From IMG/VR virus record IMGVR_UViG_3300042558_005069, positions 32,001 to 96,000 of that record: a stretch of 64,000 nt of DNA; one strand, given 5' to 3'. Below are positions 2,593-52,258 of the stretch, in pieces. Source of the stretch: a virus. The notes below the pieces were generated by a model that did not search any database, had not been told where the DNA came from, and was given only the letters and a program-made list of their open reading frames with translations. Position numbers and translations under genes: made by a program. The stretch's first letter is position 1, and each line of letters starts with the position of its first letter.

Positions 2593-5500
2593 TTACTCTA
2601 AAAAATTAGATTCGTCAATGTAGACGACTCCACTATTGTAATCTTGATCACTCAATGATATTTCCTCTTCAAATCTACGAACTGGCACCCCGAGTTTCTC
2701 TTGCATTTCAAGCTGTTGTTCTGCGGAAATCTCATCATCATCGCGCAGTAAGATGTAAGCAATGTCGTCTTTTGTAACCCCGCTTTTACCATTCCCTGGG
2801 TGAACTTGGGCCTCTATGTAGTCAACTGCTGTTTTAATTTCTCCACCAAATATGTCATCATCTAAGTCTATGTACTGATCAGACATTGCCCTCATTCCAA
2901 ATCCTGGAGCATTGAATGATGACGCAGATGCCATTGTCGAAAGTGAGTCAACCTCAGAAACGGTAGATCTAGAATTTACGCTCGGCTTAAGAACTACAAG
3001 GAACTGCCCATACCCTAAGCCTATGTCCTCCATCTCTTCACCTATTCCTCCGTAGGTTGCGAAACCGTATATCGGACGCAGGCGAGGCTCCATCGATGGA
3101 TGATAGCCGAACATCGATACTTCTTGAGCAGCCCTGTAGCCAGGGTCGTATGCACCATTTGATCTTCCTGCTTCAAATTGAGAAAGTATTCTTCGATCGT
3201 CTCCAGTGCCATCAAAAATTTCTTCTAGCGCGTCCATGTCAAGAGCAATGACCACTCTGTCCTCTTTGAATGGACCTCGGCGCATTGTTCCGAATGTTTT
3301 AGGAACAAAATCAGAATCTGTTAGCTGGAAGTAATAATCTGTAAGTCTTCTAGTCTGATTTATCATTTTTTCGATTAGTGACGATACTGTAACTCCCAAT
3401 TCTTTAGCTTCTCTTTCTGCCCATAGCGTGCGCGTTGCAATAGTTGTTGCACGCTGGAGTAGTCCATTGGCAATGATGTCAGCTTCAAATTCGCGCAAGT
3501 CTGAATACTTTCTTTGCAATATTTCAAGCATTTTAATTTTAGATATCAATAACTGGCGCCTGACTTCACCAGTTATATCTGGAGTCCGAACGGAGGCATA
3601 AGGGTGTATTTGATTGTATTTGAAGTAAAATTTAAAATCTTTATTATTCAACAGTTCATCGATTAGTTCACCCATGGATTCGCCTATCTCCGGGTCTATT
3701 GTCTCGTTGAGTAGCCAAGAAAGTGGTCTTCCTTCGTTTTTTGCCACCTCTAAAGAATTTGTTGGTTTTCTGAAATCAGCATCTACTGATTTCTTACCTT
3801 CTTCAAGACCTAATCCAGCAATCACTCTTGCATTTGTATTCTTTATATGACTGTATATTTCACCAGATTTAAATCGGTTACGCCCAGTGTTTTCTCGTTT
3901 CCCACTGCCTGAATACTCATCGCTACCGCTAGATAGTCTTGCTTCTGGAAGGTCGTATGTTCCCCAGTCAACGTCTCCTGATATGAATTTTCTTTCAATT
4001 TCGGCAAACTTGTCTGATAGCGCAGAGGGCCCATTGGGAAGTTCATGTATCTGAGTAACAATTGCTTTTCTTTTTTTGCCGAGGGTTACGATCTCGGACT
4101 CATTTAGGCACCCCATGCCGGTAAATGGGTTGGCTAGAATTTCCTCTATGGGAATATAGGTGAAATATATGTGTGGAACTTCTTCTTCTACTCCGGCCAT
4201 GCGTAAATCTGCAAAATCAAAAGCCGTATTTCGGTTAGTGGACCAAGATGAAATCGGTCTACTTTCAATCGAAGCCTCGAATAAGAGTGGTTCATTAGTT
4301 TCTGGAATTTTCGTTATTCTTCTAGAATCGTAACCGGATTGTTCTACTGTCATAAGTGATCCACGATAAGCCGGGACATGTGTGATGCCTTTTGACTTAT
4401 AGTATTCCTGCGTTGACTGATACATCGATGAAATAAACTCTTGCAATACTTGCGCTTGAGAAGGGGTCAACTCTGGCGCAGAATCATATTTTTGTGATCC
4501 GTTTGAGATGATGTCTTCTTCTGCCAAGGTACGAAGAAATCCAGGCTTACTTAACGATAAAGCAGAAGATTGAAAAAGATCGGCCGTGGTTGCTGAAGGC
4601 TTTACTTGCCATCCTACCGCTTCATCCAGAGAGAACATCCCCCTTGCTACATGCTGTATTGCTAAAGACACTGGGTTTTCGTCATTTGCTGATATTGACC
4701 ATGAACGAATTAGTTCGGAAACAATTTGTTCCTTTAGTATATTTTCAAAATCAGAACTATCTTTTGAAATAATGTCTTGACCGAAGTAGCTCTTTATGAA
4801 AGTTTCTTGGTCAATAAACCCCGACAAATAATACCTATTTTCAGAAAGCGGGAACGGGGTCCCCTTCAACGGCAGTTCCCCATCGACGAATGCTTCCCAG
4901 AATTGATCAGCTTTGATTTTTCCGGTTTTCACGTATTGGTAAAAACCTAAATTTAACGCACTTGTGAAGTTTGTATTGTACATGAGTGAACTAAGCTGCT
5001 CAAAAAACTTAGGAAATTTTTCGTAGTTTTCTACAATCGAATCCATTAACTTAACGTCAACTTCTTCAGGATTGCCAGAAATTGTAGAATAAATTTTTGT
5101 CATTGCTTCCGTTTGAAAGTCAAAATAAAACTTTTTATTTTCCCAGTAGTTTATTGTTTCTAGTTTAGACACAACACTGTAGATCTCTTCGTCTACCCTG
5201 TTTCTGTATTCGTCTTCGCCCATATCTATAATTGGCTGAACAAATATTTCATGCAGCTCTTTTCTTTTTTCTAGGGTCAGATCTGTTACTTCGTCTACTC
5301 TTGTTTTCTCATTAAATATTTGTCCATCGGTGATATTCAACAAGAATTTGCCTGTTCCGCCATCTTCTACGTCAACCAGTATCTCAACTACTCTCTGAAA
5401 AGAGTCACCGTCCGTGATGAAGGGGAGTCTATCAAAATCTCTTGGATCATCAGAAAGAAAGTTTTGAATTACTGGCTTAGCTCTTCCTTTTTCAACAAAA

Positions 5501-8500
5501 GCGTCCACAATTTCACGCAATGAAACGTTCATTTGTCGAGAAATGTTTTTAGCTATAAAAGATTTTGCTCGAGACGCTGGACTAACTGCCATATCCATGT
5601 CTTGTTGTCTTGTAATTTTATGGATGTCGTCTAGCAAGTCTGAGTTTATGTCCCAAGTCGAAGCAGTAACTTGCCCATTATTTGTTTTTTGTGCTTTTAG
5701 CTTAGGAGATGCTCCTGGCTTGAAGAAAATCTGCCCATTATCGTCTTCGACCATGTATTTTGATTTCTTAGCCTCTTCCCCTGAAGAGAAACTGTCGCTT
5801 ATTTTTTCGAGGACTACGACATCTCGATCCATCATTCTTTTGCTGTATGGATTTTTTATTTGTCGTTTTTCAATCCCTGATACCTTGAACTTCCCTGAAA
5901 CAATGCCTTCCACAATCCCGTAATTTCCACCTTCGGCGCTTGGCTTGCCTCTTGCTGACAATCCTTGCTCGTCGAAAAAAATTCCTCTTGTATCATCGGG
6001 GAATTCAAATATAAACTTTTCAGGAATTGAACGAATAGCTGACAATTCATCGTACTCATATTTGATGGCGTCATTTATCCCGGAAGCAACAGCTGCTGCT
6101 CTAAAATTCAGTTCTTCTCCAATATTTACTACTGACCCAACATCGGGAGTCAGTCTTGCCACCCTGTATGTCCTGTGGCCGATAGGAGGGGCAGACTCAA
6201 GACCATTCCTGATTATCTCAGCAGCTCGATAAAGGGCGGCGTCTTCGGGTACATTCTCTAGATTTTCGACCTCACCAGCTAGATGTCGACTAATCTTCCT
6301 ACTTTCAGCAAAGCTACTGCGCCACAAATTGAGAGTATCTCCCAATTCGGTATCACTCGGTACAATGCCAGGATGCCAGTGTGAGCGAATTAAGAAATTG
6401 CTCATCCTGTTTCTGTCGTTCAGCTTGTCAAGGGCATCTGAAGAACTGTCCAACTCTCCGCTTGTCGGCACGTATCTATACTGATTGCCATATCCAGACT
6501 CTTTTCTAAAATGCATATTTGGGAATCTTGCGATCATCACACTCATTGGGAATTCGTCTTTGAACCATGCTTCTGGAATAGAGATGCGTTCCGGGCCAGT
6601 TCCGGCAGATCTAATTTGGCTTCGGGCTGAGTCGGGATCTACAATTTCGTTTATGTTCGACAATATCTCGCCACCAGAAAAAAAAGCAGTTTGACCGGAC
6701 TCGTCAACTGGGGTTGAATAATCGTTTCTAGATGTTGAAAATCTGTCATTATTTGCAATTCTTAGAATTGCGTTTTCGCTCAATAGGTAAAGAAGCGTAT
6801 CTTGCTGTAATCGATCGTCTTCTCCGATTCTGAATATATCTTTTATTTTAGGGTCAGATGTGAAAGCCGTTATACTTTCTAACTTTAATTGCGTGCTTCC
6901 AGAGTGCGGTCTTGAATCAACTCTTAGATCAAAAGCAATGTCGCGCATTTTTAGATCTATATTTTCCTTTGATCCATCTTCCCCACCGGGGAGTATCGGC
7001 GTTACGTATTTTGAGTTACCGGTCGCTTGTACTCCTGCTTCCCCGAGAGCTTCGTTTACAAGTCTTTGTCGCTCTTTCATAGTTTCGGCAAAAGCTGATT
7101 CCCAAACTTGTTGCTGTTCTGGAGTCCACTCATATTGGAGACCTTCAGGTTTTTCAACCTTAGAGTAGTCGGCTACGGCTGGTAGCTCGATTACGCGATA
7201 GGTGCCTGCTGAAAATAAAATTCCATCTTCGGGTGGGGGCGTTAAGTAGCTGTCGACGACATACAGGTTCTCTAGAGACCCGGGATTATCCTCGTTTACT
7301 TTTTTCATCTGACTTACGATTGCATAACTTTTTCCCTGTGCGCTGGGCCTGTACAGATGACCTTGAACAAGGTGATTTAATGAAAAATGGACACTGTGCC
7401 TATTCGTCCTTAGTGGCTCCCCGGTATATGGGTTTATTACGACTTGTTGAGTATCTTGATTTACTACATCGTAATCGCCATTTGGGTAAATTCTTAAATT
7501 TCCATCTTTGTCAATTTGTGGCTTATGAACAGTTTCATGGACCAGGAATAAGTCATCAAATTTTAGTATCCGAGTTTTGGACTCATATTGATCTTTTTCA
7601 GTGGTAACCATGATATCGCCTGCGCGGTAGTTATTTACCCACCATGCATCGTCTCTATCTTCCGGTCTTACTCCTCCAAGGGAATACCTAGGGCTTGAAC
7701 TGAAGAAATTTTCTCTTCTGTCTGTGAATATTTTTTCAGCAACGGCACTCAGTCTTTCAAGTTCTGCTAAGGCATCCCTGTCTCCACGGGCCGCAGCATA
7801 CAGTAAGGCTGATGTTCTTGATTCCCGAGAACGGTCTTCATCTACTTGCGCAACTGTGGCCATAAACCAAAGACGAGCGAATTCTCGCCCCTCCTTTGAC
7901 TTTGGTGAGGTATTGGAAATGACATATGGGTTCACTGGGAGTCGAAGCACACCTGGGGCATCAATTGAATCTCTTGTGAATGCTATTTGTTTTCCATTTA
8001 TGTCGTGAACTGGAACAAGTGTATCTGTCGTTTCGTTTCTGTCAGGCCTTGCGTATATCTTTCCTTTTACTTCTGCCACTGGATCTTTGGATACAGTTCC
8101 TATTCTGTCGATATCGTTTGCCCCAGAGGAGAGCCGCATGCGTTGTTCTCTAAATGAATTGCGTTGTCTAGTTGAAACCCCAGACCTCTTTGAAGGTCTT
8201 CTTAGAACTATCCTATCCCGTGGGCCAAGATAAACCCCACCCACTGTTCTGCCGGTAATTTCATCTATTCTTCTATCCGATCCGCTTGCAAAATTTCTTC
8301 TTTCCGCGCTGCCTTCTTCGTATTCGTCATGGGTTATAAAGCGGTCGGATGTATTTGCAATTCTTGCTCGATGATTGTCCGACAATACTGCCCAACTAAT
8401 AGGGTCGACAATTAAATTCCTCAATTTGTCTTCGTCGTCTGTGACTTTCTCTATGTCATGGGAGTTTGAGTTGAAATGTCCCCTGGCAGTGACCATTAAT

Positions 8501-11500
8501 TCAGTTGCGATTTGTCCGACCTTGAGGTCCTGATGATCATTCGAGCTCGATCCTCCGGTCTCTCCACCATCAAACGAGTTAGTACCGAAAGATAAAAGCA
8601 ACTGTCTCAACTCTTCATCTACATTTTCAGATGACTCGTTATTTTCAAGTATTGTTGCTCCACGTAATACGAGTGGTTTTTCTGGTTCTGGGACAAACCA
8701 TGAATCAATAACGAACAAGTTTTCAAGAGCTCCTGGATTATCCTCTATAACACTTCTTAAAGGAGTTACGATAATATTGGATTTAGATTTTCTTTCCCTG
8801 AATGAATGTCCCCTGGCTAGGTGATTCAACGTAAAGTGAATGGTTTGTCTGTGATGCTTATATACACCACCATCTTCCGTTGGGATATAACCATAGTCTC
8901 CGGCTGGTCTAAGAAGTACGTTTCCAGCTTCATCTTTTACTATGTCGTATGTTGTTTCATGAACGACATAAAGATCATCTATTGAAAGATTTCCTATACC
9001 TTTTTCATCTGCGGTAGCTTGAAAATACTTTATTTGCGCTGGAGAAAGACGTCCTTCTGTTTGTATTCTTCTTTGTTCTTCTATTAGAAGCTCGCCCTTT
9101 TTCGCAAGATCTTCAAACTCCAACATCGAATCTGCGTCTCCACGCATTCCAGCATAAAGTAAAGCGTCTACATATGTTGATGCTTGGTCCCCGGAACTTT
9201 CGTAACGAGCAGCTCTTGCCGCTATCCAACGGATGGCCGTGTCGCGCCCCTCTGCCGAAGTTGGCGAAAGGCCACTTATGACGTACGGGTTTAATGGAAT
9301 AATCTTTATTTCTTTATCAGTAATTTGGCTCTTTATTTTTTCAGGAATATGACCAAAATAAATTTTATCGTTCCCTATGGCGTGAACTTCTCCACGCATG
9401 CGGACATCTTTACCATTTCTGTCCTGATAAACATTAGACAATAACGTTTTTTGAGTCTGTTTATTAAAAGCTCCAGCTGGGTATACTTGAGCTGGGCCTC
9501 CTGAAGAAAATCTTAAATCTTCGTTTTTGAGTATCTCTCTTCTGTTTGGTCCAAGCATCTCCATTGCAAGAGAGGAAGCTGGCCCGGATCGATCACGACC
9601 CTTTGGATTATTAACAAGCCTAAGTTTTGAAGAGGAGCTTTGATTTGTATTCTGTGGAATCCGACGTTGACGTTCAGCACCAGATGACAAACGCATATCT
9701 ATGACTTTTCTAATTTGACTTCTAGCTACGTCGATGCGGTCTCTGGCTGCGCTTCTTAAATTTGTACCAATAGAAGTTCTTTTGATTAACCTATCTCTCT
9801 CTTCTATTTCTTTCCACGGCGTCTCTCCGTCCCGCAATCCAAGAAATGCACGAGCATCATCTCGTAGTTTTTTTGTAATCCATCTTTCTTGAGCGGTTGG
9901 GTCTGGATGGAGAACCGCTACTGCTCCTTCTGCCAATGCCTCTATCAGGTTTGTGTTCCCGTAACTGTGCGCCGTGCTTGCAAAAGGAAGATTTAACCAT
10001 TGCTCGTCAAATCCTGCTCCGTTCGGGTCTTTGGCTAGCGTGCTCTTTTGAATACTCTGTTGATCTATTAATGGTTCGAAACTATAATATTCTTCCGCGA
10101 CACGTAGACCTCGGTAGCGTGCCGCTCTTCCCTCAGCGGTGCCGTAGTCTCGAATGTACTGACGACCCGTCGCTTTTAGGTCTCTGTAAGGAAGTGCGGC
10201 TGGGTTAGTAGCAAAAACCCCTCCCAGCTCAGCCTCAATCATTGCCCGCATATGTATGTAATGAACGAGTTCGTGTTTAAAAACAGCAGATATAGATCGA
10301 TCCATCACTGTTGTGCTGCCAATACTGAATTCCGAGGTAAGATCTATTTCTCCCTGAGATGTTCTTCCGGTTTCAATTGCTTCCCACGCAGCAACAATGT
10401 TCAGAGTTGGGACAAGTTGATCCAGCCAGGCTGCAGAAAGCGAATCATCTGTCTGAATGTTTTTTACTATAGGGGGAGACCCGAATGTCTCCATTAGCCA
10501 TTTAAGCTCAGGACTCGCATCGAGTGAAGCTTCAACAGCTTTTCTCAAAAGATTTACATTTTGCGGAGAAAAATCAATTTCTGTCTTGCGCGATTTTAGC
10601 AATTCAATTATTAGTTTTCTCATTAATGTTCGTATTTCTTCTGGTGAAGCCCAATTGCTCGGAGGAATTGGAAACAAATCAAAAATAATTTCCATGTATT
10701 CATCTTCACTAGAAGGCACCATTAAGTTTGCAATCTGACTTGATGATAGCCCCTGCAAGAAACCAGGAGTTGATATTCTTAGTTCAACACCCATCTCCGT
10801 TATCTGCCCATATCTATAATCCATAGATTGATGCCTCTTGAGCTGCTCTAACTCATCGCGACGCAGTGGCTTAAGGAGAGGATCAATCTTTATTATTGGC
10901 CTGTCTCTATCTGGTTTTGCAGGAGGTATTCCGACATCCAGTATTGGTCGGTCATCGTCCCCCGAGGAAAACCTTGCAGTTTCACTTTCAAAATTTATAA
11001 ATCTTCTCTTAGCTGCGTCAAATTCTTCACGTGCAGTTTGAAAATTCTTTGTTCTCTCGTCTAGGAAATCTTCTCTTTGGGCCCTGTCTAGAATTCTGTT
11101 ATCCCAACCGCGACTTTCTGCCTGATTAATCATCGCGTGCATGACCATTCCGGCAGCAGTTGCATCCTGTTCCGCTGAATGATGCCTATCGAGGCGCACT
11201 TCAAGATATTCGGCTAGAGCGCTTAGTGTAGTAGATGCGACTCTTGTGTCTCCGCGGATGACTGATGGACCATCTTTGTTTTCTTCAGAATATTTTGGAA
11301 GAACCATTTGAGCCATATCAAGAGAATCAATGTATCCAGATGGACGCCACATAATCCCGGCCTCCGCGAGAGCATCCTCAAGGACGTTTTTGTCAAATAT
11401 TGCGTTTTGTACGCCCATTATTGCGCCCGGGCCAGCGAACTCAGCGACCATGCGATGAGCGTCCTGAATACTCATCTGCTGTGCAAGCCACTCATCGGTA

Positions 11501-16287: not shown

Positions 16288-16330
16288 TTAGAGCAATAAT
16301 ACCATTTGTTGATGGCTTAAAATGCGGAAA

Positions 16331-19445: not shown

Positions 19446-19474
19446 TTCCCCTCCTATGGATTTAATTTTGCATA

Positions 19475-19897: not shown

Positions 19898-19906
19898 TTA
19901 AGGTCT

Positions 19907-20994: not shown

Positions 20995-21007
20995 GTACAA
21001 TAATTAA

Positions 21008-23349: not shown

Positions 23350-23417
23350 AGGCACGCTAGAAGTCATATCTCAATACGTGATCTTCTTGGCAATTAATGG
23401 TCAGATAAAAATCATTA

Positions 23418-23490
<73 letters not shown>

Positions 23491-23492
23491 CT

Positions 23493-24647: not shown

Positions 24648-24649
24648 AA

Positions 24650-32706: not shown

Positions 32707-32709
32707 CTA

Positions 32710-33213
32710 TTATTTACCTTCCAGATTACGCATAATCTTCATAGCCATCCACGCTTCTTTTCTTTCAGTTTGTGTCCCAAAAGAATAAGTTCCGCCTACT
32801 GACTTTAGCATTTCTCCGCAGCATGTAGAAGTAGCAGCAAGTTTATCGTCACTATTTGCAAGGAAAAGAAGAGCTCTTGCGTCTTTCGTTTTAATTTTAC
32901 TGCGAGCTTCTCCGACTGAAGTAAGGATTACGGCTTGCTCTAAAGATTTTTCTGGAATTTCTTTTTCTTTTGTTACAAAAGTCTTATACCAAGAACCATT
33001 GACAACGTTCTTTGGTTTATCCCATAGAAAGCGATGAAACCGAGTCGTTCTAAATTTTTTGAGACCAGAAACTTTTGATGTTGTTGATATGAAGTTCACT
33101 TTAATCGAAGACCCATTTTGTCTTTCTATAATTCCATCTTTTTCTCCAGGGCCAGCGTCTGTTATGTAATACAACTTGTCATTATGAATAGAGCCCACAA
33201 GTACAGCCTTCAC
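32710..33213 (-). CDS. hypothetical protein
   Basis: GTGA overlap with the upstream stop; GGAGG SD. Confidence 0.7.
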   Translation of the reverse strand: MKAVLVGSIHNDKLYYITDAGPGEKDGIIERQNGSSIKVNFISTTSKVSGLKKFRTTRFHRFLWDKPKNVVNGSWYKTFVTKEKEIPEKSLEQAVILTSVGEARSKIKTKDARALLFLANSDDKLAATSTCCGEMLKSVGGTYSFGTQTERKEAWMAMKIMRNLEGK

Positions 33214-40784: not shown

Positions 40785-40789
40785 CTCTA

Positions 40790-42499
<1,710 letters not shown>

Positions 42500-42634
42500 A
42501 TGGCTCCTATTGTGTGGGTGAATGACCATCGGGACATTGACCTATAAACTGTGTGGCAAACTATAACGTATCACGTTCCGAGCCTTAAAATTAGCAACAT
42601 TCAATGGCTTTAAGAAAAATAGTTTTTATCTTCC

Positions 42635-45600
42635 TTATTTGTTGATTATTTCTGGCGAGGTTTTTCTTTTTCCCTTACGTCCAGGAGCAGAAGGCTTGTA
42701 CACCGTCGTGCCTTCCCTTAAGCGGGTCTGGGCATTCCTCAACTGCTCACCGCTGAAGATGTCTTCTATTGTGTGGTTTGTGCCAAATATTTTATTAAAT
42801 TGATCAACGAATTCCTGCAATTCGGACCTCGAGAATCTAGGCACGTCGCCTAATCTTTTTGAAAAAGTCTTACCTCTTCTTTTTGCGGCAGCCTGCAGTA
42901 CGGTCCCCATTTCCCTGCTATTGATAATAAATTGCCTACTTTGAACACTGTTAAGGCTTGAACCAGGGAATGACCTATCAATGAATTCTGTTAAAGCTTC
43001 ATACACGTTGGCCTTGGATGCCAAAAGCTCCTCATCCAGCTTTTGGCCTGCCTTATTTACGCCGAATACATCGCGAGCATTCGGGATGACCCCAGTTCTG
43101 ATCATTTCCGCAATATAGGCAATGGGTACTCCATCTTTTTTCCACTCTTTCACGGCGTCTTCACCAAGTCCAACGTCTACCTTCTTCACGTCGTCTGGAT
43201 CAAGTTCGGCGTCTACCTTCTTCACGTCGTCTGGATCAAGTTCGGCGTCTAAATCCTCTCCAAAAGCTTTTTCCAGGATTGGCTTAAGTTGCTTCGGCCA
43301 TTCATCTTCCGATATGCCGAGATGGTCAAGAAGTTGCGATAAAGTAAAATCTGCTCGCTGAACACGGCTACCCTTGCCTCTGCGGGCGTTGCTGGCAATA
43401 TCAGGGGGAAGGGCCTCGAAAGCCTCGCCCATAGTTCCTTGATAGCTTAATTCTACCTCTGCCTCTGAGTCGTCCCTTGCGGCAGGAGAATTCTCGAACT
43501 TGCCTACGGCGTTGAATCGTCTTGCTCCGTCCTCCAGGTCATCAAACTCTTCCGCGGTAAGCATCTTCCCTGACCCATAGATCTCCTCCTCGGCGATCCC
43601 CCCTATAAAGTCTCCCCTGTCGTGCCAGTATGGATAAGCGTCTGCTCCAAATGTTTCGATAATAAAACGATCTCTCATGTTTGCACGGCCGGTATTTTCG
43701 ACGAGTCTTTCTATGGCGTTCATGCCTTCTTCTTCGGCTTCCATATCGGATACTGGAGAAAACAATCTCCACCCGCTAAATTCTGGCTGACTACCAATTT
43801 CGGCCAATAGATACCTTACGGTGTCGTGCGTGAGCGCAGCCGTATCGCCCTTAAGCTTTGCTTCTTCCGTAACGTTAAGTCCAAGGAGTTTTGCTAGTTT
43901 CGGGATGGTAAGCGGCTCTGACTGGGTCCAATATACCCCCACTTTGGGAGTAGCCACGTCCACGACCTCCTCCCCTTGTAGCTCCGAAGTTATAGTTCCT
44001 CTGGATATATCTTCTTGCCTGCGCCATCCAGTAGGGATTCTGACGGTGTCAAGTAGTTTGCTTATCGAAAGCATCCATGAATCACCGGAAGGATCATTGT
44101 TTGCAAAATTGTCGGTTGTTTTACCGATCTTAACGACTCTTGATCCGTCGCTTTGCTTTCTTGCTCGCATCCTTTCTCCGACTTTTATGATGTTGTCATT
44201 AATTTTTTTTGCACGATCATTCTTCGATGTTGAATTTTGATCTGCTGGCATATCTAAGGCAATGCCTGTCTGATTGAAGGCGTTCCAGAATTGCATCGCA
44301 TAACGAGTTACTCTGTCTCTATCTTGAGGGTCAATGCGCACATCTGTACGTATTCCTGCGAGCTCTAGGGCAGATAGGCGCTGCTGCATTCCTGCCCTAT
44401 TCTCAAATCTGCTCACGCGTCTTCCGAACCTGCCCTCTGGAGTTCCAGTTATTTTTGAAGCCCTACTCGAACCTTTTGCTACATCAGGAGCTTCCTCGGA
44501 TGTTTCCGAAGGTTCCGCACCTGAAGAGAATCCAGCATCAAAATCTTCATCAAAATCATCATCATCATCATCTTCAGCCTCGATCGTGCTTATTTCGTCA
44601 AGCTCGTCAAGCACATTGTCAGCGTCGTCCACAGTCAGGTCCTCGTCTGAAATCCCCCGCCCGTCATCTTCTCCCTCTGGAAACTGAGCGGCTGGGTCAA
44701 ACATTGGACCATCGATAATTTCGCGTGCTCGTTCTCTCATTATGCGGACGGAAGCATCACGTAACGTTTCTTCCGAAACATTTGCGTCGGCAAATTCATC
44801 CATCACTTCTTTTCTTCGTTTGATGAACCCTTGTGTTGCTACGTCAGGTACGCCTATTCGTCTCATTTCAGCAATTAATTCATCATCCGGAAGACTCAGG
44901 ACGCTTCTTCTTGAAGCGTTAAAATCGGTTAGGTCTTTCCCTTCCGCGGCATACTCTTCTATTTCTCTATACACTTTTGGCAATTTGTCGAGTGATAATT
45001 CACTCTCTCTGTCAAAATCTTCTGGCAAAATTTTACGTTCGACACCGTCGCGAATGAGGTCTGCAATTTCTTTACGCTTTTGACCTTCGGCAAAGTGCGC
45101 CATCCACATTCTCGGTGATAGTGATATCGCTCTCATAGCCCTAGTTACGACCACGTGTTGAAGATTCATTTCTTCTATCCAGCCCGGAGGTCCCGAACCG
45201 TTGCGCTTAGCTGCTTCAAGAATGTCTACGTTTAAGTCATCGTCAGGATCTGTAAAGTCATCAAGCACCAGAACAAATTTTCCTTCTTTGCCTTTTGCTG
45301 TTGTTCCAGTTTGTATGACGACATCACCACCGCGTTTTTTTGCACTTTTGCGAACAGCATCACCAATGAGGTTTATTATTCTTGTAGCTTCTTCTGGGTC
45401 ATCTTTTGCATCTATGACGAATCCGTCATAATCTCTGCCCTTTGCGCGGCTCACCTTCGGGCCAACTCCGAAGCTCAGTCTCGTCCTCGACTGAAGCCCT
45501 AGGCGATCAAGTATCCCTAAAGTGTCGGACAGGTATGCTCCATCGAAGTTCCTTCCGGAAGTATCCGGGTACTTGTTCGGATCTGCATATACCGCCTGAG

Positions 45601-48600
45601 GTCTTCCAGTATCGACTCCGTCACCAGAAAGAATTAATTTTCCAGTCCATTTAAATTGTTTAGTTGCATAAAAAGTTTCACGTGGATCTGTGCCCGTGTT
45701 TGATCTGCCAGCTGTAGCTGTCATAACAAGTTTATTTCGCATTCTTCGAAAAGCGATTTTTTCTAGTTCTTCTACCGTTTCAGCTTCTCCAAACTCAGCA
45801 ATTGTCTCAAACTTTGGGGTTCCGTCAGCCTTTGTCCACTTCGATGTGACTCTTAATCTTTCTCCAGGCTGATCTGGTATTTTTTCTACAATAACCTGAA
45901 AGTCATCTGGGTTAATAGCATCTTGGCCGTCTTTGAAATCATATTCAAGTTCAAAATAAACAGCATCCTTGGTTCCTTTTGCATCAGGCTGTACAACAAA
46001 TATTTTTGTTGCGGCGTTAACATCTGATGATTTTGAACTCCTATCTGTACTTGACAGAATCTGACTAAGAGTTTTTTCTTCAAACTCCATCAAGCCTAGA
46101 TCAAGGCTGTCCCTCATTGGCCTGATGCTAGAAGAACGGTGCGACTTTGTCCCATCCGCAAGCACTACTCCGCCACCCCTTAGGGAAACAAGCATCTGGC
46201 TTGCAAACATTGTCTGAGATCCGGCTGGTTGTCCGTCTACTGGTTGAAACAACAATTGATACAATGAATTTCCTGGAGATTTTGATTTTAATTTAAATCT
46301 TTCTCTTATTGTTGCCATATCCCAATAATCTCCGATTAAAGGTGATTTTTCTGGTTTTCTTCCAGGGTTTAAACCGGCTGCAGTTTTTTCAGCCCAGTCA
46401 ATATGTTGAAAGAAATCAACAGCTTCTTGCCATGCTGACTGAGTTAACATTATTTGAGGTTTGTCTTTTGAACTTAAAGGCTTAACGAGTTGATCAAATT
46501 CATTTTGAGTTAGATTCTGGGAATCACGCAGTGTTTCTGGATTGTCGATTCTTCCGCCAAGGAAAACTGCACTTTCAAGGAATAAGTCTTTCCATGTTTG
46601 AACTGCTAAATGGACAGTTTGAACTTTTCCACGCGACAGAGCCATGTCTGGCAAATTACCAAAATAAACTTCTTCTTTTTCATCGACAACTCGAGTGCTT
46701 AAGGCTTTTGCAATTTTAGTTTTTGCGTCGTCTATTTCTTTTCTTAATTCAGTAAGCGCTTTTGCTCTTGCTTTTGGCGTCATTCCTGCAAAGTTTTCAC
46801 CGTTTAAATATGAATCAAAACTAACTCCATAAAGTCGCTTAACAGTATCGTTAACGCTGTTTGCTGCACCAAAATCGCCAGCTTTAACAAATGAAAAAAT
46901 ATTTTCTATGTGTCGTTTAGCTGCCGTGTCAGCAGCCCCTTCAACGTATTTCCACTGCTCTGCAGTTAACGGTTTGCCTTCATCCAAGAGATCCTGAAGT
47001 AACTTATTTTCCCGACCAAGAATGAGCGTCGCCATGTACCCGAGAAGACTACCAAAGCGAAATGACTGTGTTAATTTCGGCACAAAATCGGGAGAAATTG
47101 ACTGCATTATATTCTTTGAACCGTTGAAGCCAAGTATCTGCTGTCTGTCGTCGCCGACTGCTATTGTAGAAACTCTTTCTTTATTTCTGTTTAGTAATTC
47201 TTCCCAAACTTCATTAAGGTCTTGTGCTTCGTCGATCGCAAAAAGAGATATAGGTTTTTCTTTTGATGCGTATTGTTTTTTCAATTTGCCACGACTTCCA
47301 TCGATAGAGACCACAACCCATGGTTCTCCTTCCGATTTGTCCCATTGACGTATAGACGAAATTCTTCCAGTTTGCGGATCTATTACTTCATCATAAAATT
47401 TATTATTTTTTCCATAATAGACAACATCGCCCCTGCGTATATTAAATTGTGCAGGTATTTTTTCATTCGCTAGGCTGTCTTTGCTTCCGTGCCCAAGAGC
47501 ACCAGGATTTGTTGATAGATCCGGATCGGCGAGCAGTAGCAGTTTTGGCAACTGCCCCTGAGTTGGGAGCAACATGCCGTTTCCATCAACCAATTCATCT
47601 GCGGCTTTTTTGACATATGAAAGCCATTCATCCATCAGTTTATCTGGAACGTTTTGAAGTTGTTCATCGATTGCTTGTGTTTTTTTCTGTGCCTTTTTAG
47701 TTGAGAATCTGCCGGTCATCGTGTCAGTTTGCTCGCGGAAGCTTAGATTAAAAACATCTTTTGTGACTTCCGGGTTTGAAGACAATGACCACCTTCTGAA
47801 TGCCATTGCAAGGTATTCGCCAAAAAAGTCTACTTCGATCCAATTATTCCCGTCAGGCATGGTAAAAGGGACATCATACACTTCAATATTTTTAGTTTTT
47901 GCCTTTTTGCCTTTTCCTCTTGTAACGCTTATTGTTCTTCTGGGAAGACTCACACCAGCTTTTTCGAGAAATGCAAGCATGTCCTTGCCAGTTTCCACGG
48001 TTGAATAGCCAAGATCTTTGTAGTTAGGCCTGTATCCAATGAATTGCATACTCTCTGAGTCATGCTGTCTTCTTGCTTGGTCATAACCATCCACAGTTAT
48101 GGGTTGGTTTCTATTTTTAAACGATCTTCTTCTTGCATAGTCAGTTAGTAGTTCTATTTTTCTTCTCATCGACGGCGCATTTAATATTCTATTTTCCGGG
48201 CTGTCATTTTCTGCGATTCCTTGACGCAAGGACCAGTAAGCAAGCTGAGTAGTCGTTCCTATTCCTGTGTTCCCAGGAAATGATTCAGCTGCTTCTAGGC
48301 GGTTTTCTTTACCGAAAACCGTGTAGTAGATTGTCGGTTTATTATCTTCCGTTACTCCACGAGATTCTCCCAATTCCCTGATTGCTTGGATTAGGGTTTT
48401 TTCATCTGTGCTCTCTGGCCAAAAAACATCAACGTCTTCAAAACCTTTTGCTGGGTACTTAGCTGCAAGATAATTTGCTTTTTTTAGTAGCTGTTGCTTT
48501 CTAGTAACAGCATCTCCGGCAAATCTTTGTAGAATGTCATCAACGCTAAATTCAGCATTGATTGCTGCTGCGAGCATCTTCATTGTGGTTGTTTTACCGG

Positions 48601-51600
48601 AACCCGCTGCCGCATCAACTCCGATAACTAATTTTTCTTGACCGTATACAGCTGCTAATCCAAGATCAATAATGTCTCGCTGTTCATCCGTAGGAGGAAC
48701 AAGAAGATTAAGAAGAGACTTAACGTCTGTTGAAGCAGGAGTTCTTCTTACGGGTCTTTTTTTCGATCCACTACGAGCATTTATTGGATTTCCGCCACTG
48801 GCGAATCTTCCGTCGAGCGTAAGCGCCCTGCCCTGAGAGTCGGACACAGAGGCAATATCGCCATACATACGCTCTTCTTTTGACTGAGAGCCATATTTTC
48901 TTCTGTCTTTTGAAGAAGAAAGGTCTGAAGTGTCAGTAACGTCGTCCTCTTTGTCGAGGAAGGGAATTCCACTGGAGAAACGTTTGTCGATGTTGTCCGC
49001 TCTATCAATAAGGTCAATGTCTCCCATTGGGCCGCTGATTGGTCTGCTTGTTGGTACTTTTGGTGAATCCTCATACCCTTCTAACATTGAAAGCGGAACG
49101 GTGTCTCTTGATGACTTTTTAGCTTTTCTTTCGTTATCCTCCATGCCCGATAGACGCCGCAATGTTTTGGATCTATTTAGCATCCAGTCAACGGCTTGCT
49201 GCGCTTGACCCATGGCAGTCTTGATAGCGTTTGGATCGTTTCTAATCTTTTCTGCCCAGAATTTTAGATATCCTATGTGATCTTCTCTAACCATGGGCGA
49301 AATGCCAAGCATTCCCAGCAAAAAGGAAGACCCAACTTCTGCTATGAGCTCCTCAAACGCGTACGCCGGTGACCCATATTTTGCAACTTGAGGTCTATTG
49401 TTCCGGCTTGGATGCCCAGTCCAGTGCGTCATTTCGTGCAATAGGGTTGAGTAATAACTTTCCGCATCATTAAACGTTTCGAACGGCGGCATATTTATGA
49501 AGTCGCCGTTTGGAGAGAAAAATGGCCCGCCAACATTTGACTCTCTTAATCTTGGATTTAATTCTTTAACTATCGCTTCTGCATTTTTAACACGAGCTTT
49601 TGGACTCAGGTTTTCCAGGTCGATTTCTGGCTTATACATTTCAGGAGGCAGACCATCAATATCCGCTACGTTATAGACTTCTTCAACTTTGTACTGACGT
49701 GGATCTGATCCAAGTATCGGAACTAAGATATTTACAGGACGAGCATTCGGCGATGCTTTCCCTTTAAATTTTTTCCATTGACTTATCCCTGCCCATTTAT
49801 TGGTTTCGTAACCACGTGATACCGCTATGGAGTTTAACAACATACGGTTGGTCCCCTGGTAGGACCAGCTTTTTTGACCTTGGTTCTTCTTTGTTGGGTT
49901 TCGGGGGTTGTGCTCCCCTTCTCTCCATGGCATATTCCATTTGAATTTTTCTGGATTATTTACAGCTTCTTGAAGCATTTCAAGAATTTGTTTGCCAATT
50001 TGAGCGTAGTATTCATCGATTACGGCTCTGCCCTCAGCTGTTGCCGTATCTACTATGTCGCCAGGCTTTAGAGAATTATTACCGTCTCCTCCTGAAGAAA
50101 ACTTTCCAGTAGAAGAAACTTGGTTAAAAAAGCCATCGAACTTAAACCGCTCATCTATGGTTTTGTCGCTTTCGCGTTTTCTTAGAAAATCCAAATAGTT
50201 TTTGTTTTTTGCCTGAGCCTGCTTCCTGGCCGCAGACATAGATCTACTTATCTCTTTTTTTGGTTTTGCTGTTACTATTTCCCGCGAACCACTGCCTAGC
50301 GGCCGAGCTTCTGTTCCCGCTACCGAGGAGCGCTCTGGGGCTTCAATTTTACCGGGGACTTTTGGATTATTGATTGAGCCTGGACCGTCTGGTGTTGGGT
50401 CGGGCTGCTCAAGAGAAGTACCACGAAGGAATATACCTTCGCCCACAATCCCATTGAGGTTGCGGTCAATAGCTGTCCTTGGATCAAAATTCTCAGCATT
50501 TGGGGTCGAGAAAAATCTACCTGCAGATCTTGCTCCCCCGATGCCGGGTTTATTATTGGCTCTACTTCCTATGGCTCTTCCGAGCCTGTAGGCGGATACC
50601 TTAAATTCTAGATCGTCACTGATTAAACTTTTTTTTTTTAAATTATCTAAAGCTGTATCGATAGCGTCAATCAACTCATAAGAAACACCATTTGTTATTA
50701 CTATTCCTTCTGGGTCAACATACGTATCTACCTTATGGTAGTCAAATACTGGATCTAACGCTTGCTTTACGTGAAAAGCATAATCTGTGGATACTGGCAG
50801 GAAATACGGCTTTTCTGGTTCAAAAGAATCTTCAAACGTACCGAACTCGGCTAGATGTTTGAATTTCCGCTTTTTTCTTCTTTTTCTTTTTACTATTCCA
50901 CGCAGTCCGGCAATAAACAGCTCTCCTGGATACTTGAACTCAAAGTCAGCAATATATTCGTTTTCGTTATCCTCTGTCTCGAATTCGTATTCTTTTTTGG
51001 CCATAAAGTCGCCTTTTACAACACCTGGTGGGATTATGGCAAAGCGACACTTCCCTTCAGGCTCTATTGCCATGTCGATAATCTGGCAGCTGTTGTCCTT
51101 GTTATAAAAAACGCAGTTTGAGCATTTAACCCCAATTCCAGCAACTGGATTTTGTGCAGCTGGTTTGTAGCCTGCCCAAATTCCATCAGAATCTTCGTTT
51201 ATTTTTCCGTGACGCTTTACGATCTTTAGTAGTGCGTCTCTGAGGTCTGACTCTTCTTGATCCAGGTCATCGGCACTAATTGGCTTGCGGCTCTGCCCTT
51301 CGTACTGCACTGCTGGTAGGGGTACCACCGTCATTCCGTTTGGCCCTGGCTTTATGGCAATGGGAATCGATGGCATCTGGCTCGGACGAACAACCCTCTG
51401 AGGATCTACCGGAGGCAACCCGCCAACAGGCATAACTGGAGGTGAAGTTTGAGGCTTAGCAACGATCACTATTCTTTCTGGAGCGCCAAACATAAAGCGG
51501 CCATTGCCACCTCTGGAAAAATGACATTTATACTTTTCCATTGAATTTGACTGGTCTGTTCTGTTGAAGGAGACCATTCCGTTGTCTTCGTCAACTTCCG

Positions 51601-52258
51601 TCACAGAGACTTGATTTCCAAGAACTTTTTGCAATTCTATTTCTAGCTCATCGCTCATGGATGGACGTTGCTGAACCATAGGGCCGGAAGGGCTCTCGAC
51701 GTCGTAAGTTCCTGGCATCCCTGCTTTTACCGAAATAGTGCCTGTTAGTTGATTTGCTCCGTGGAGAACTGGGCTAACTTCGTAGAGTTCAAGCTCGTAG
51801 ATTACGTTTGCTTGAGATTTTTGGTCAAATTGAGCTCTAAGAGTTTTGTAGCCTATTGACCACTCTTGGTCTTCGCCAAAAAAAGCAACATTAGCGAATG
51901 CTTCTTTGCCCTTTTCTGAATTTAAATTAAACTGGACACGGGCAAAAAGTCCTCCTATGCCAGCCATTTTCATTTTCATTGGCAGTCTTGGATCGGTGGA
52001 CGGAACTTCGTATATCTCTAGAACTTTGCCAATCGGGTCATTCCAGTTATGACCCCACACCACACGAGGCTTGCGCCGCATCAGGCTTTTGGTAAATGCT
52101 CCGCTCTGAACGATATCGCCAACAGAATCTTTGTTCCCTATTCCGGAAACGAAGCACTCGACCATGCCTTGAGCCTCGTCAAGATTCAGTACGCCGGATT
52201 TTCCGTTGACAACGGACGACATTGAACCAGCTTTATATTCAAAAGAATTTCCGGACAT
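42635..52258 (-). CDS. HK97-type prohead protease fused to a HiPIP-like 4-Cys domain, ArdC-like antirestriction module, UvrD-like SF1 helicase and an unknown C-terminal region (3207 aa)
   Basis: GNKDSVGDIV..GAF..WGHNW..PIG..EWSIGY..LYEVSPVLHGAN; WNMPW..YQGTN..YYSTLLHEMTHWTGHPSR..YAFEELIAE; AAAGSGKTT, DEAQD, VGDDRQQI, LTQSFRFG, VVTRA. Confidence 0.9.
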   Translation of the reverse strand: MSGNSFEYKAGSMSSVVNGKSGVLNLDEAQGMVECFVSGIGNKDSVGDIVQSGAFTKSLMRRKPRVVWGHNWNDPIGKVLEIYEVPSTDPRLPMKMKMAGIGGLFARVQFNLNSEKGKEAFANVAFFGEDQEWSIGYKTLRAQFDQKSQANVIYELELYEVSPVLHGANQLTGTISVKAGMPGTYDVESPSGPMVQQRPSMSDELEIELQKVLGNQVSVTEVDEDNGMVSFNRTDQSNSMEKYKCHFSRGGNGRFMFGAPERIVIVAKPQTSPPVMPVGGLPPVDPQRVVRPSQMPSIPIAIKPGPNGMTVVPLPAVQYEGQSRKPISADDLDQEESDLRDALLKIVKRHGKINEDSDGIWAGYKPAAQNPVAGIGVKCSNCVFYNKDNSCQIIDMAIEPEGKCRFAIIPPGVVKGDFMAKKEYEFETEDNENEYIADFEFKYPGELFIAGLRGIVKRKRRKKRKFKHLAEFGTFEDSFEPEKPYFLPVSTDYAFHVKQALDPVFDYHKVDTYVDPEGIVITNGVSYELIDAIDTALDNLKKKSLISDDLEFKVSAYRLGRAIGSRANNKPGIGGARSAGRFFSTPNAENFDPRTAIDRNLNGIVGEGIFLRGTSLEQPDPTPDGPGSINNPKVPGKIEAPERSSVAGTEARPLGSGSREIVTAKPKKEISRSMSAARKQAQAKNKNYLDFLRKRESDKTIDERFKFDGFFNQVSSTGKFSSGGDGNNSLKPGDIVDTATAEGRAVIDEYYAQIGKQILEMLQEAVNNPEKFKWNMPWREGEHNPRNPTKKNQGQKSWSYQGTNRMLLNSIAVSRGYETNKWAGISQWKKFKGKASPNARPVNILVPILGSDPRQYKVEEVYNVADIDGLPPEMYKPEIDLENLSPKARVKNAEAIVKELNPRLRESNVGGPFFSPNGDFINMPPFETFNDAESYYSTLLHEMTHWTGHPSRNNRPQVAKYGSPAYAFEELIAEVGSSFLLGMLGISPMVREDHIGYLKFWAEKIRNDPNAIKTAMGQAQQAVDWMLNRSKTLRRLSGMEDNERKAKKSSRDTVPLSMLEGYEDSPKVPTSRPISGPMGDIDLIDRADNIDKRFSSGIPFLDKEDDVTDTSDLSSSKDRRKYGSQSKEERMYGDIASVSDSQGRALTLDGRFASGGNPINARSGSKKRPVRRTPASTDVKSLLNLLVPPTDEQRDIIDLGLAAVYGQEKLVIGVDAAAGSGKTTTMKMLAAAINAEFSVDDILQRFAGDAVTRKQQLLKKANYLAAKYPAKGFEDVDVFWPESTDEKTLIQAIRELGESRGVTEDNKPTIYYTVFGKENRLEAAESFPGNTGIGTTTQLAYWSLRQGIAENDSPENRILNAPSMRRKIELLTDYARRRSFKNRNQPITVDGYDQARRQHDSESMQFIGYRPNYKDLGYSTVETGKDMLAFLEKAGVSLPRRTISVTRGKGKKAKTKNIEVYDVPFTMPDGNNWIEVDFFGEYLAMAFRRWSLSSNPEVTKDVFNLSFREQTDTMTGRFSTKKAQKKTQAIDEQLQNVPDKLMDEWLSYVKKAADELVDGNGMLLPTQGQLPKLLLLADPDLSTNPGALGHGSKDSLANEKIPAQFNIRRGDVVYYGKNNKFYDEVIDPQTGRISSIRQWDKSEGEPWVVVSIDGSRGKLKKQYASKEKPISLFAIDEAQDLNEVWEELLNRNKERVSTIAVGDDRQQILGFNGSKNIMQSISPDFVPKLTQSFRFGSLLGYMATLILGRENKLLQDLLDEGKPLTAEQWKYVEGAADTAAKRHIENIFSFVKAGDFGAANSVNDTVKRLYGVSFDSYLNGENFAGMTPKARAKALTELRKEIDDAKTKIAKALSTRVVDEKEEVYFGNLPDMALSRGKVQTVHLAVQTWKDLFLESAVFLGGRIDNPETLRDSQNLTQNEFDQLVKPLSSKDKPQIMLTQSAWQEAVDFFQHIDWAEKTAAGLNPGRKPEKSPLIGDYWDMATIRERFKLKSKSPGNSLYQLLFQPVDGQPAGSQTMFASQMLVSLRGGGVVLADGTKSHRSSSIRPMRDSLDLGLMEFEEKTLSQILSSTDRSSKSSDVNAATKIFVVQPDAKGTKDAVYFELEYDFKDGQDAINPDDFQVIVEKIPDQPGERLRVTSKWTKADGTPKFETIAEFGEAETVEELEKIAFRRMRNKLVMTATAGRSNTGTDPRETFYATKQFKWTGKLILSGDGVDTGRPQAVYADPNKYPDTSGRNFDGAYLSDTLGILDRLGLQSRTRLSFGVGPKVSRAKGRDYDGFVIDAKDDPEEATRIINLIGDAVRKSAKKRGGDVVIQTGTTAKGKEGKFVLVLDDFTDPDDDLNVDILEAAKRNGSGPPGWIEEMNLQHVVVTRAMRAISLSPRMWMAHFAEGQKRKEIADLIRDGVERKILPEDFDRESELSLDKLPKVYREIEEYAAEGKDLTDFNASRRSVLSLPDDELIAEMRRIGVPDVATQGFIKRRKEVMDEFADANVSEETLRDASVRIMRERAREIIDGPMFDPAAQFPEGEDDGRGISDEDLTVDDADNVLDELDEISTIEAEDDDDDDFDEDFDAGFSSGAEPSETSEEAPDVAKGSSRASKITGTPEGRFGRRVSRFENRAGMQQRLSALELAGIRTDVRIDPQDRDRVTRYAMQFWNAFNQTGIALDMPADQNSTSKNDRAKKINDNIIKVGERMRARKQSDGSRVVKIGKTTDNFANNDPSGDSWMLSISKLLDTVRIPTGWRRQEDISRGTITSELQGEEVVDVATPKVGVYWTQSEPLTIPKLAKLLGLNVTEEAKLKGDTAALTHDTVRYLLAEIGSQPEFSGWRLFSPVSDMEAEEEGMNAIERLVENTGRANMRDRFIIETFGADAYPYWHDRGDFIGGIAEEEIYGSGKMLTAEEFDDLEDGARRFNAVGKFENSPAARDDSEAEVELSYQGTMGEAFEALPPDIASNARRGKGSRVQRADFTLSQLLDHLGISEDEWPKQLKPILEKAFGEDLDAELDPDDVKKVDAELDPDDVKKVDVGLGEDAVKEWKKDGVPIAYIAEMIRTGVIPNARDVFGVNKAGQKLDEELLASKANVYEALTEFIDRSFPGSSLNSVQSRQFIINSREMGTVLQAAAKRRGKTFSKRLGDVPRFSRSELQEFVDQFNKIFGTNHTIEDIFSGEQLRNAQTRLREGTTVYKPSAPGRKGKRKTSPEIINK
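43174..43251. repeat. perfect 36-bp in-frame tandem duplication (DAELDPDDVKKV twice)
   Basis: CGTCTACCTTCTTCACGTCGTCTGGATCAAGTTCGG twice plus CGTCTA. Confidence 0.95.

Follow-up and report, generated by a model that had tools for sequence, protein, structure and literature searches.

A Phe/Leu-Ser/Ala-Ser-Gly peptide at the module joints of three giant phage proteins: a candidate cutting site for polyprotein processing

Described systems and their relation to the phage giants

Among the prohead proteases, T4 gp21 and phiKZ gp175 mature phage head proteins at a consensus motif, and the canonical substrate of such enzymes is the major capsid protein. MARTX toxins are secreted, very large precursors whose interchangeable effectors are freed inside the target cell by cuts after Leu in unstructured linkers, the protease domain being an inositol-phosphate-activated cysteine protease. 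In phage SPN3US a further prohead protease, gp245, cuts many head and ejection proteins at A-x-E (PMC10052503). For polyvalent proteins, processing by zincins was proposed by Iyer, Burroughs, Anand, de Souza and Aravind in 2017; the parts of their paper that bear on this matter also note fusions with assemblin-like peptidases, at the C-termini, and the full-length transfer of N4 virion RNA polymerase and plasmid ArdC (PMC5512222).

The window analysed here, a stretch of 64,000 nucleotides (positions 32,001 to 96,000 of the IMG/VR record IMGVR_UViG_3300042558_005069), belongs to an uncultured tailed phage, namely a myophage with a genome of about 150 kb, of which the contig read covers 104 kb. 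The three giant ORFs reported in the initial annotation (4564, 2524 and 3207 aa) are all present as described, on the minus strand, and are termed here A4564, B2524 and C3207. They and their context genes are:

2593..16287 (-) A4564, giant polyvalent protein of 4564 aa with 14 junction motifs; adjoins a primase/helicase gene and does not belong to the head module
27022..28407 (-) HK97-fold major capsid protein, extended at its N-terminus by about 145 aa, without junction motif
33210..40784 (-) B2524, giant protein of 2524 aa with 3 junction motifs; within the head module, without family match
42635..52258 (-) C3207, giant protein of 3207 aa with 4 junction motifs; directly after the portal gene
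52355..54457 (-) portal protein, start of the head module (context gene)
54739..56052 (+) large terminase (context gene)

C3207, which bears a Peptidase_S78 domain, thus lies between the portal and capsid genes, all three on the minus strand. For B2524, Pfam, PHROGs and NCBIfam yielded no usable annotation, and a phmmer search of PDB gave a single weak match, to a poly-gamma-glutamate hydrolase (E 0.0016); its residues 187-289 and 2177-2512 are kept in giants of related lineages. Among the NCBI/ENA homologues, a 154.5-kb contig carries an identical copy of a segment of A4564.

With their S78, ArdC-N, MPTase, P-loop/UvrD, GNAT, DEDDh and ParB-C-like domains in a phage context, the giants qualify as polyvalent proteins, which likewise combine ArdC-N, MPTase zincin, helicase, GNAT, nuclease and ParB-like modules in giant chains (PMC5512222). 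The passages of that paper on cleavage, processing, proteases and linkers contain no junction peptide, whereas here one genome-wide, lineage-varying code stands at every joint; and where the fused assemblin-like peptidases reported in those passages are C-terminal, the peptidase of C3207 is N-terminal. The likeness to maturation of the SPN3US type would consist in one protease and one short motif serving many virion proteins, including ejected ones, with the difference that cutting is predicted here. In systems of that type the capsid protein shares the motif and the cuts mostly remove N-terminal propeptides, whereas here the motif is missing from the capsid protein, separates enzyme modules and is also present in a tail protein. 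The protease also differs, being of the S78 family and not of the T4 gp21 type. With MARTX toxins the giants would share the large precursor of swappable effector modules joined by linkers predicted to be unstructured, but they have no such cysteine protease (Peptidase C80 had no Pfam match in the three giants at E <= 0.01), and delivery would be by the phage virion.

By capsid protein (46% identity), the closest relatives in culture are Gordonia myophages of the genus Chidieberevirus (ChisanaKitsune, NC_071006, and GMA6). Their portal-to-capsid interval is likewise occupied by effector-like genes, there for an RNA ligase, a VIP2-like ADP-ribosyltransferase and a 969-aa HNH protein, and their S78 protease is 42% identical to that of C3207. 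In contrast to the giants, their effectors are separate genes without the junction code, and the sole FSSG in 45 kb lies at capsid aa 154.

The junction motif and the modules between its copies

The pattern [FL][SA]SG occurs 21 times in the 10,295 residues of the three giants (14 FSSG, 4 LSSG, 2 FASG and 1 LASG), against about 1.1 sites expected from composition. For FSSG alone the expectation is 0.2, and 2000 residue shuffles gave at most 3 FSSG and 7 [FL][SA]SG, which rules out chance. FSSG is by far the commonest 4-mer of the giants, the next unrelated one occurring 4 times, and the pattern is absent from the other 45 window ORFs of at least 60 aa (10,570 residues). The 14 exact copies, their enrichment and their absence from the ordinary proteins of the window, all noted in the initial annotation, therefore hold against composition, shuffles and the remaining ORFs; each coordinate it gave is also correct as the low end of the 12-nt motif, including those of LASG (12967) and an FFSG variant (6673). 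Its view that the conservation is at the protein level is likewise borne out, since the 21 sites are encoded by 20 distinct 12-mers with both TCN and AGY serine codons, which rules out a DNA repeat, and sites are kept while their flanks diverge. The flanks are polar, the preceding residue is Arg at 11 of the 21 sites, and the invariant core of the motif is Ser-Ser/Gly. The sites are:

15865..15876 (-) FSSG, A4564 aa 138
14761..14772 (-) FSSG, A4564 aa 506
14143..14154 (-) FSSG, A4564 aa 712; kept in 5 homologues
12967..12978 (-) LASG, A4564 aa 1104; weak site, not conserved
12901..12912 (-) FSSG, A4564 aa 1126; conserved, in a pLDDT<50 stretch
12436..12447 (-) FSSG, A4564 aa 1281; F/L swap in homologues, in a pLDDT<50 stretch
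11827..11838 (-) LSSG, A4564 aa 1484; L/F swap in homologues, in a pLDDT<50 stretch
10960..10971 (-) FSSG, A4564 aa 1773; conserved, in a pLDDT<50 stretch
9679..9690 (-) LSSG, A4564 aa 2200; conserved, in a pLDDT<50 stretch
9499..9510 (-) FSSG, A4564 aa 2260; conserved, in a pLDDT<50 stretch
8281..8292 (-) FASG, A4564 aa 2666; F/I/L-ASG in homologues
8122..8133 (-) LSSG, A4564 aa 2719; L/F swap in homologues
5779..5790 (-) FSSG, A4564 aa 3500; F/L swap in homologues
3925..3936 (-) LSSG, A4564 aa 4118
36828..36839 (-) FSSG, B2524 aa 1316
36408..36419 (-) FSSG, B2524 aa 1456
34731..34742 (-) FSSG, B2524 aa 2015
50090..50101 (-) FSSG, C3207 aa 720; pLDDT<50 dip at 716-727, just before ArdC
48968..48979 (-) FSSG, C3207 aa 1094; pLDDT<50 stretch 1045-1156
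48794..48805 (-) FASG, C3207 aa 1152; pLDDT<50 stretch 1045-1156
44519..44530 (-) FSSG, C3207 aa 2577; the C-terminal module has homology blocks that begin at aa 2580-2600

Domain analysis of the giants identified the following modules:

51719..52186 (-) Peptidase_S78 (HK97-type prohead protease) domain, C3207 aa 25-180, by profile match
50339..51718 (-) conserved post-protease region, C3207 aa 181-640, without junction motif
49124..50014 (-) complete ArdC cassette (ArdC-N and MPTase zincin), C3207 aa 749-1045, flanked by the motifs at aa 720 and 1094
47048..48655 (-) P-loop/UvrD-type SF1 helicase module, C3207 aa 1202-1737, between the motifs at aa 1152 and 2577
12607..12777 (-) GNAT acetyltransferase core, A4564 aa 1171-1227, between the motifs at aa 1126 and 1281
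11842..12024 (-) ParB C-terminal-like segment, A4564 aa 1422-1482, ending 2 residues before the motif at aa 1484
11038..11718 (-) DEDDh (RNase T/DnaQ-like) exonuclease, A4564 aa 1524-1750, between the motifs at aa 1484 and 1773
10261..10275 (-) HELVH at A4564 aa 2005, resembling a second zincin signature

In related genomes a Cys-rich piece of the post-protease region (C3207 aa 322-416) is encoded as a small ORF of its own. The ArdC cassette, whose pairing of ArdC-N with an MPTase-PolyVal zincin is a hallmark of polyvalent proteins, matches PF08401 (E 1e-8) and PF18818 (E 7e-34) and has its HExxH as HEMTH at aa 941; between its flanking motifs C3207 matches the whole of the 297-aa ArdC of R388 (Foldseek E 1e-13, TM 0.67-0.73; PDB 6i89, 6sna). 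The R388 protein is free-standing, whereas the same fold and HExxH form here one bead on a 3207-aa chain. By sequence, one precursor, C3207, holds both an intact prohead protease domain and an intact zincin. GNAT, ParB-C-like, DEDDh, ArdC and P-loop/UvrD domains are thus confirmed between motifs. The initial annotation had listed GNAT, DEDDh, zincin, ArdC, helicase, ParB and an ART; all were recovered except the last (PF03496), which was seen only in the homologue P0138. Its figure of about 20 effectors agrees with the number of segments (24, about 20 of them of at least 130 aa), but only about 7 of these have an identified domain.

The placement of the motif was analysed with structure models and homologues. 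In two AlphaFold2 models all ten motifs covered fall into pLDDT<50 stretches between confident blocks, i.e. into predicted disordered linkers, although the assignment as "linker" may partly reflect low confidence from shallow alignments, as the models are modest (mean pLDDT 52-56). Of the ends of BLAST blocks, 29% fall no more than 15 aa from a motif, compared with 11% at random. Homologous giants show modules gained, lost and relocated at the motif, and the ArdC cassette relocates jointly with its flanking motifs. The motif is real and is under selection as a short linear motif in flexible linkers.

Lineage-specific dialects and the tape measure protein

LSSG occurs 1042 times in 120 homologues, i.e. 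95x the expected number, and almost every one of them has it as its most frequent 4-mer; the motif persists at orthologous columns at identities as low as 49%, with F and L interchanging and the flanks diverging. More than 100 metagenomic relatives use [LFM]SSG, mostly LSSG, while others use LASG, GFASR, ISGRMG or ITGAM. The giants of related complete genomes carry ISGRMG (G007), [ILV][TS]GxM (G006) or GFASR (G009), and orthologous DEDDh cassettes are flanked by ITGAM in G006 and by ISGRMG in G007. Single proteins mix F, L and M variants, and the dialects grade into each other (FASG, FASR, GFASR). Judged from these comparisons, the motif of the window is a Phe-rich dialect of a family-wide junction code.

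Just one other clear carrier exists on the 104-kb contig, and it lies beyond the window:

901-aa ORF running off the contig end: candidate tape measure protein, by position and homology, with 3 junction sites

It lies 1.3 kb after the gene for the tail sheath (phrog_23, E 2e-37) and has homologous ORFs of 1617-1698 aa in the related genomes G005, G006 and G007, of which the G006 copy also follows a sheath gene. A PHROG search with this ORF gave no match; we regard it as probably the tape measure protein. In four lineages the N-termini of these proteins carry, at one aligned place, each lineage's own dialect. The junction motif is thus confined to the three giants and the probable tape measure protein. 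Literature searches for LSSG together with phage, or with prohead protease, ArdC or polyprotein, found no description of it.

Possible readers of the motif and alternative explanations

The peptide is kept by relatives or swapped for a version of their own, which suggests that it is probably a protease cutting signal. We consider it somewhat probable that [FL]-[SA]-S-G is the cutting site of a phage-encoded endopeptidase in polyprotein processing of the giants; cleavage itself, head packaging followed by ejection, and the identity of the reader are steps that we infer within this explanation. The motif, usually preceded by Arg or Lys, marks the joints between cassette-like enzyme modules as well as sites in the probable tape measure protein, and a phage endopeptidase would recognise and cut it, so that the precursors become separate proteins, either during assembly or after delivery of the proteins with the DNA. 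What may speak for such delivery is confined to the head-module position of B2524 and C3207 and the prohead-protease fusion.

Two proteases encoded by C3207 come into question as readers. The S78 domain is detected as PF04586 (42 bits vs a cut-off of 21, aa 31-174) and phrog_80 (E 7e-26). It folded poorly in the AlphaFold2 model; residues H70, S134 and H166, putatively catalytic by analogy with the peptidase clan, are invariant in 50 homologues. Against it, lineages whose dialects are unrelated still have domains that are 70-79% identical, i.e. no more diverged than within one dialect, and a search for residues that track the dialect returned only clade-level differences (GHNWND, GHNWNE, GHSWND) that are inseparable from phylogeny. 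The MPTase zincin is present in all 11 complete genomes with a code of the [FLM][SA]S[GR] family and in none of the 3 with [ILV][ST]GxM (0 of 7 counting partial ones); against it, a junction code also exists in lineages that have no MPTase. The divergence of the MPTase (about 40% identity) does not follow the dialect. Neither candidate is separated from phylogeny, and clade and the fusion state of S78 both confound the occurrence of the MPTase. We regard the MPTase as a possible reader, put forward tentatively, and the S78 protease as a slightly less likely one; a role of another phage protease appears improbable. The HELVH module is a poorer candidate, because it is absent from one complete genome with the same code and weak in another.

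The capsid protein complicates matters. Neither [FL][SA]SG in this phage nor the code in 60 relatives was found in it. Its conserved segment S-L-S-G-Y-N-V-K-D-V-F-S-G-L-P is located where HK97 is cut, HK97 Ser104 aligning at about residue 148, and at the aligned place ChisanaKitsune has FSSG and this phage FSG. Across lineages with different codes the junction S-L-[ST]-[GS] ... V-K-D-V-[YF]-S-[AG]-[LM]-P is unchanged, so the segment was rejected as a carrier of the code and dropped as evidence for S78, save for a generic hydrophobic-small-small resemblance. A consensus shared with the capsid maturation site, as in substrates of the T4, phiKZ and SPN3US proteases, is not found here. To our knowledge the tape measure protein is never inside the head, and its sites disfavour exclusively intra-head cutting. 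A simple head-protease reading is thus complicated by the motif-less capsid, the motif-bearing tape measure protein and the 70-79% identical S78 domains that coexist with different junction peptides.

The same distribution could be read without proteolysis, the motif being a docking or handling signal for stowage in the virion and unfolded threading through the tail tube, or a site of Ser-directed modification, in proteins that stay full-length. The carriers, giants and tape measure protein, are proteins expected to exit via the tail, the motif is missing from the capsid protein, the invariant Ser-Ser/Gly core suits a modification or binding site, and the full-length transfer of N4 virion RNA polymerase and plasmid ArdC (PMC5512222) provides parallels. 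A handling signal, however, needs neither exact placement at module borders nor movement together with cassettes, and the use of LSSG in some lineages and ISGRMG in others, despite capsid and portal-side machinery that is 70-83% identical, fits a dedicated co-evolving enzyme better than a conserved channel; we hold this explanation to be rather unlikely.

Cutting by a host protease, after injection or before assembly, with dialects that mirror different hosts, would agree with the failure of both phage proteases to follow the dialects cleanly and with the presence of a tail protein among the carriers. It seems improbable to us as well, because each host shift would require joint changes at dozens of sites in four proteins, and because the coexistence of F, L and M in one protein and the graded dialects fit gradual co-evolution with a phage partner. 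That modules shuffle at these points is what would be expected of a functionless motif, i.e. a product of chance, of compositional bias or of DNA-level recombination. The excess of FSSG over expectation and shuffles, the variety of 12-mers and serine codons, the orthologous columns kept while flanks diverge and the abundance of LSSG in the homologues leave this with a negligible probability.

Polyvalent proteins are widespread, and the question is in what way a single chain carrying up to 15 enzymes is put to use. The zincin processing proposed in 2017 came, in the passages concerned, without a known site (PMC5512222), and the junction peptide provides a concrete target that can be mutated and detected by mass spectrometry. 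It also gives a rule for splitting thousands of unannotated giant phage ORFs into modules, and its dialects point to a possible system of protease-substrate co-evolution. If cutting by a phage endopeptidase is real, the peptide and its protease would form a natural toolkit to package several cargo proteins into phage capsids and release them. More tentatively, a family of uncultured phages of about 140-170 kb may encode much of its host-takeover arsenal as a few giant virion-delivered polyproteins, which would be cut, together with the tape measure protein, into about 20 free enzymes, while particles assemble or once the host is reached, by a co-evolving phage protease that reads a genome-wide, lineage-specific code, with cassettes exchanged at that code. 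If the polyprotein reading is true, a dsDNA phage would be using a polyprotein strategy like that of MARTX toxins or RNA viruses.

A recurrent peptide in three giant proteins

The source contig (104,099 bp, IMG/VR viral; completeness 65% as estimated by CheckV), of which the window covers bases 32001-96000, encodes three giant proteins, A4564, B2524 and C3207, named after their length in residues.

Head-module genes and the giant ORFs of the window
52355-54457, minus: portal gene, head module
minus: C3207, 3207-aa ORF, head module; residues 1-180 form a Peptidase_S78 / HK97-type prohead protease
minus: 579-aa ORF, head module
minus: B2524, 2524-aa ORF, head module
minus: several small ORFs, head module
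27022-28407, minus: major capsid protein, HK97-fold, head module
54739-56052: large terminase, divergent from the head module
2593-16287, minus: A4564, 4564-aa ORF, away from the head module, with a primase/helicase gene upstream

The motif coordinates of the initial annotation are all correct: the giants (10,295 residues) contain 21 [FL][SA]SG sites, 14 of them FSSG, against 1.1 and 0.2 expected from composition and maxima of 7 and 3 in 2000 shuffles. The other 45 ORFs of the window (10,570 residues) contain none, as had been noted for its ordinary proteins. The 21 sites are encoded by 20 different 12-mers using both serine codon families, so that selection acts on the peptide rather than on the DNA, and the motif is, as proposed, not a DNA repeat. 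Arg directly precedes it at 11 of the sites, and its flanks are polar.

At least 280 metagenomic homologues of C3207 (1.9-4.8 kaa) have in common the protease as well as the conserved stretch 181-640. Among the 120 homologues listed, LSSG occurs 1042 times (95-fold above expectation) and is the most frequent 4-mer in nearly every protein. FSSG or LASG is favoured in certain sublineages, and the flanks show lineage flavours (R/K/S/G upstream, R/K/A downstream). Homologues of A4564 retain the motif at identical alignment columns down to 49% identity, with free Phe/Leu exchange and diverged adjacent residues. The motif is very probably a real functional junction signal.

Among cultured relatives, Gordonia myophages of the genus Chidieberevirus come closest by capsid protein (46% identity). 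Their portal-to-capsid interval instead carries separate genes for RNA ligase, a VIP2-like ADP-ribosyltransferase and a 969-aa HNH protein, together with two maturation proteases; the fused giant form occurs in no record of the GenBank phage collection. In Gordonia phage ChisanaKitsune the sole FSSG within the first 45 kb is at aa 154 of the capsid protein (24080-25507), in a column that aligns with F-S-G of the window phage's capsid protein, near the HK97 gp5 cut position. Between the replication and head modules of the window (21424-26043) lie genes for a phage-borne, B12-dependent class II ribonucleotide reductase (21424-23349, plus), a cytochrome P450 (23493-24647, plus) and a TauD/TfdA-type dioxygenase (25048-26043, minus); the P450 and TauD pair is unusual auxiliary cargo in a phage.

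Module borders and linkers

The claim that the motifs fall between recognisable domains holds: all verifiable domains lie inside inter-motif stretches, and that between aa 720 and 1094 of C3207 matches ArdC of plasmid R388, a free-standing protein, over its whole length. Of the BLAST similarity block ends, 29% lie no more than 15 residues from a motif, compared with 11% of random positions. Module gain and loss at the motif is likewise seen in homologous giants, where the position of the ArdC cassette varies and flanking motifs are always present. In the G011 lineage (G011:C1:33155-33529, that of homologue P0109) the ArdC-MPTase cassette forms a separate 1104-aa ORF directly downstream of the protease giant, so that at this junction a gene was either split or fused.

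Two AlphaFold2 models, of C3207 aa 1-1200 (mean pLDDT 56) and A4564 aa 1100-2299 (mean pLDDT 52), place all 10 covered motifs in stretches of pLDDT<50 between confident blocks (chance about 5 in 10,000); this placement is supporting rather than decisive, because shallow alignments inflate the disordered fraction.

A Cys-rich segment inside the conserved post-protease region of C3207 (window 51011-51295, aa 322-416; C379, C382, C391 and C404 invariant) is a separate 113-125-aa ORF (52-59% identity) in the related genomes G005, G006 and G007, so that the C3207 core is itself a gene fusion without junction peptide. Only two pieces of B2524, a C-terminal one at aa 2177-2512 (window 33249-34256) and an N-terminal one at aa 187-289 (39918-40226), are kept in the giants of these genomes, whose middles hold different cargo, including the DEDDh cassette found in A4564 in the window phage; this suggests conserved end anchors and a swappable middle.

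Lineage-specific dialects and the probable tape measure

The only other clear motif carrier in the whole contig is a 901-aa ORF, cut off by the contig end, which follows the tail sheath gene at a distance of 1.3 kb and has homologous ORFs of 1617-1698 aa in relatives; by synteny it is probably the tape measure protein. Related complete genomes have their own junction peptides.

Junction peptides in the giants of complete related genomes
G007, 138 kb: ISGRMG
G006, 169 kb: [ILV][TS]GxM
G009, 151 kb: (D)GFASR, 13 copies in a 4905-aa protease-fused giant

The DEDDh cassette, for example, is flanked by LSSG/FSSG in the window phage and by the peptides of other dialects in related complete genomes. 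One aligned spot at the tape measure N-terminus reads RFASG/RFASR in the window phage, LAGRMG in G007, LTGAM in G006 and LTGAI in G005. Because each lineage's own dialect recurs in the giants and the tape measure, concerted change has affected dozens of sites in four proteins, a pattern that points to a single reader acting in trans.

The 3462-aa ORF L101 of G007 has NUDIX, HTH, DnaJ and Zeta-toxin kinase domains strung between ISGRMG sites. A 703-aa ORF of G006 (G006:C1:156147-158258, minus), probably a fibre or decoration protein, contains 13 copies of a ~40-aa repeat, each ending R-T-A-S-G-S-G; we rejected these as junction code, since they are a true tandem domain repeat.

Candidate readers of the junction peptide

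Both the S78 prohead protease and the ArdC-type MPTase zincin remain candidates for the reader. The S78 domain is intact, occurs universally and forms part of a motif carrier, and all dialects have in common a hydrophobic-small-small core, recalling the Ala|Ser sites of herpesvirus assemblins, which are homologous to S78. However, the capsid protein lacks the code and the tape measure carries it, and S78 is 70-79% identical between dialects, a divergence no greater than inside one dialect. All 11 complete genomes with a code of the [FLM][SA]S[GR] family encode exactly one MPTase, whereas the 3 complete and the 4 partial genomes of the [ILV][ST]GxM family encode none. Across the 14 complete genomes tabulated, the association is inseparable from clade and from whether S78 is fused. 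The GFASR dialect also occurs together with an MPTase, but lineages without MPTase still possess a code, and MPTase divergence does not track dialect. Not all relatives that use the same code have the second zincin-like module (HELVH).

Lineages with the [ILV][ST]GxM code have an unfused prohead protease ORF of ~800 aa (G007:C1:26255-28624, G006:C1:93891-96383, G005:C1:34470-36941). This ORF has a DUF6321-like insert behind the protease, and its conserved N-P-[AI]-[ST]-G-[RK]-M-G at aa 326-346 may serve for self-release. In the window phage DUF6321 is found in a separate 297-aa ORF (26027-26920).

The motif is best explained as a protease site, and we have moderate confidence in the putative cleavage; judged by gene position only, the giants would be packaged in the head. 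Among published concepts, the nearest are polyvalent proteins, for which zincin processing has been proposed (PMC5512222), and motif-directed maturation by the prohead protease (PMC10052503); the literature searched contained no description of a genome-wide, lineage-specific junction code. The window features a Phe-rich dialect of this code and its positional orthology in the tape measure.
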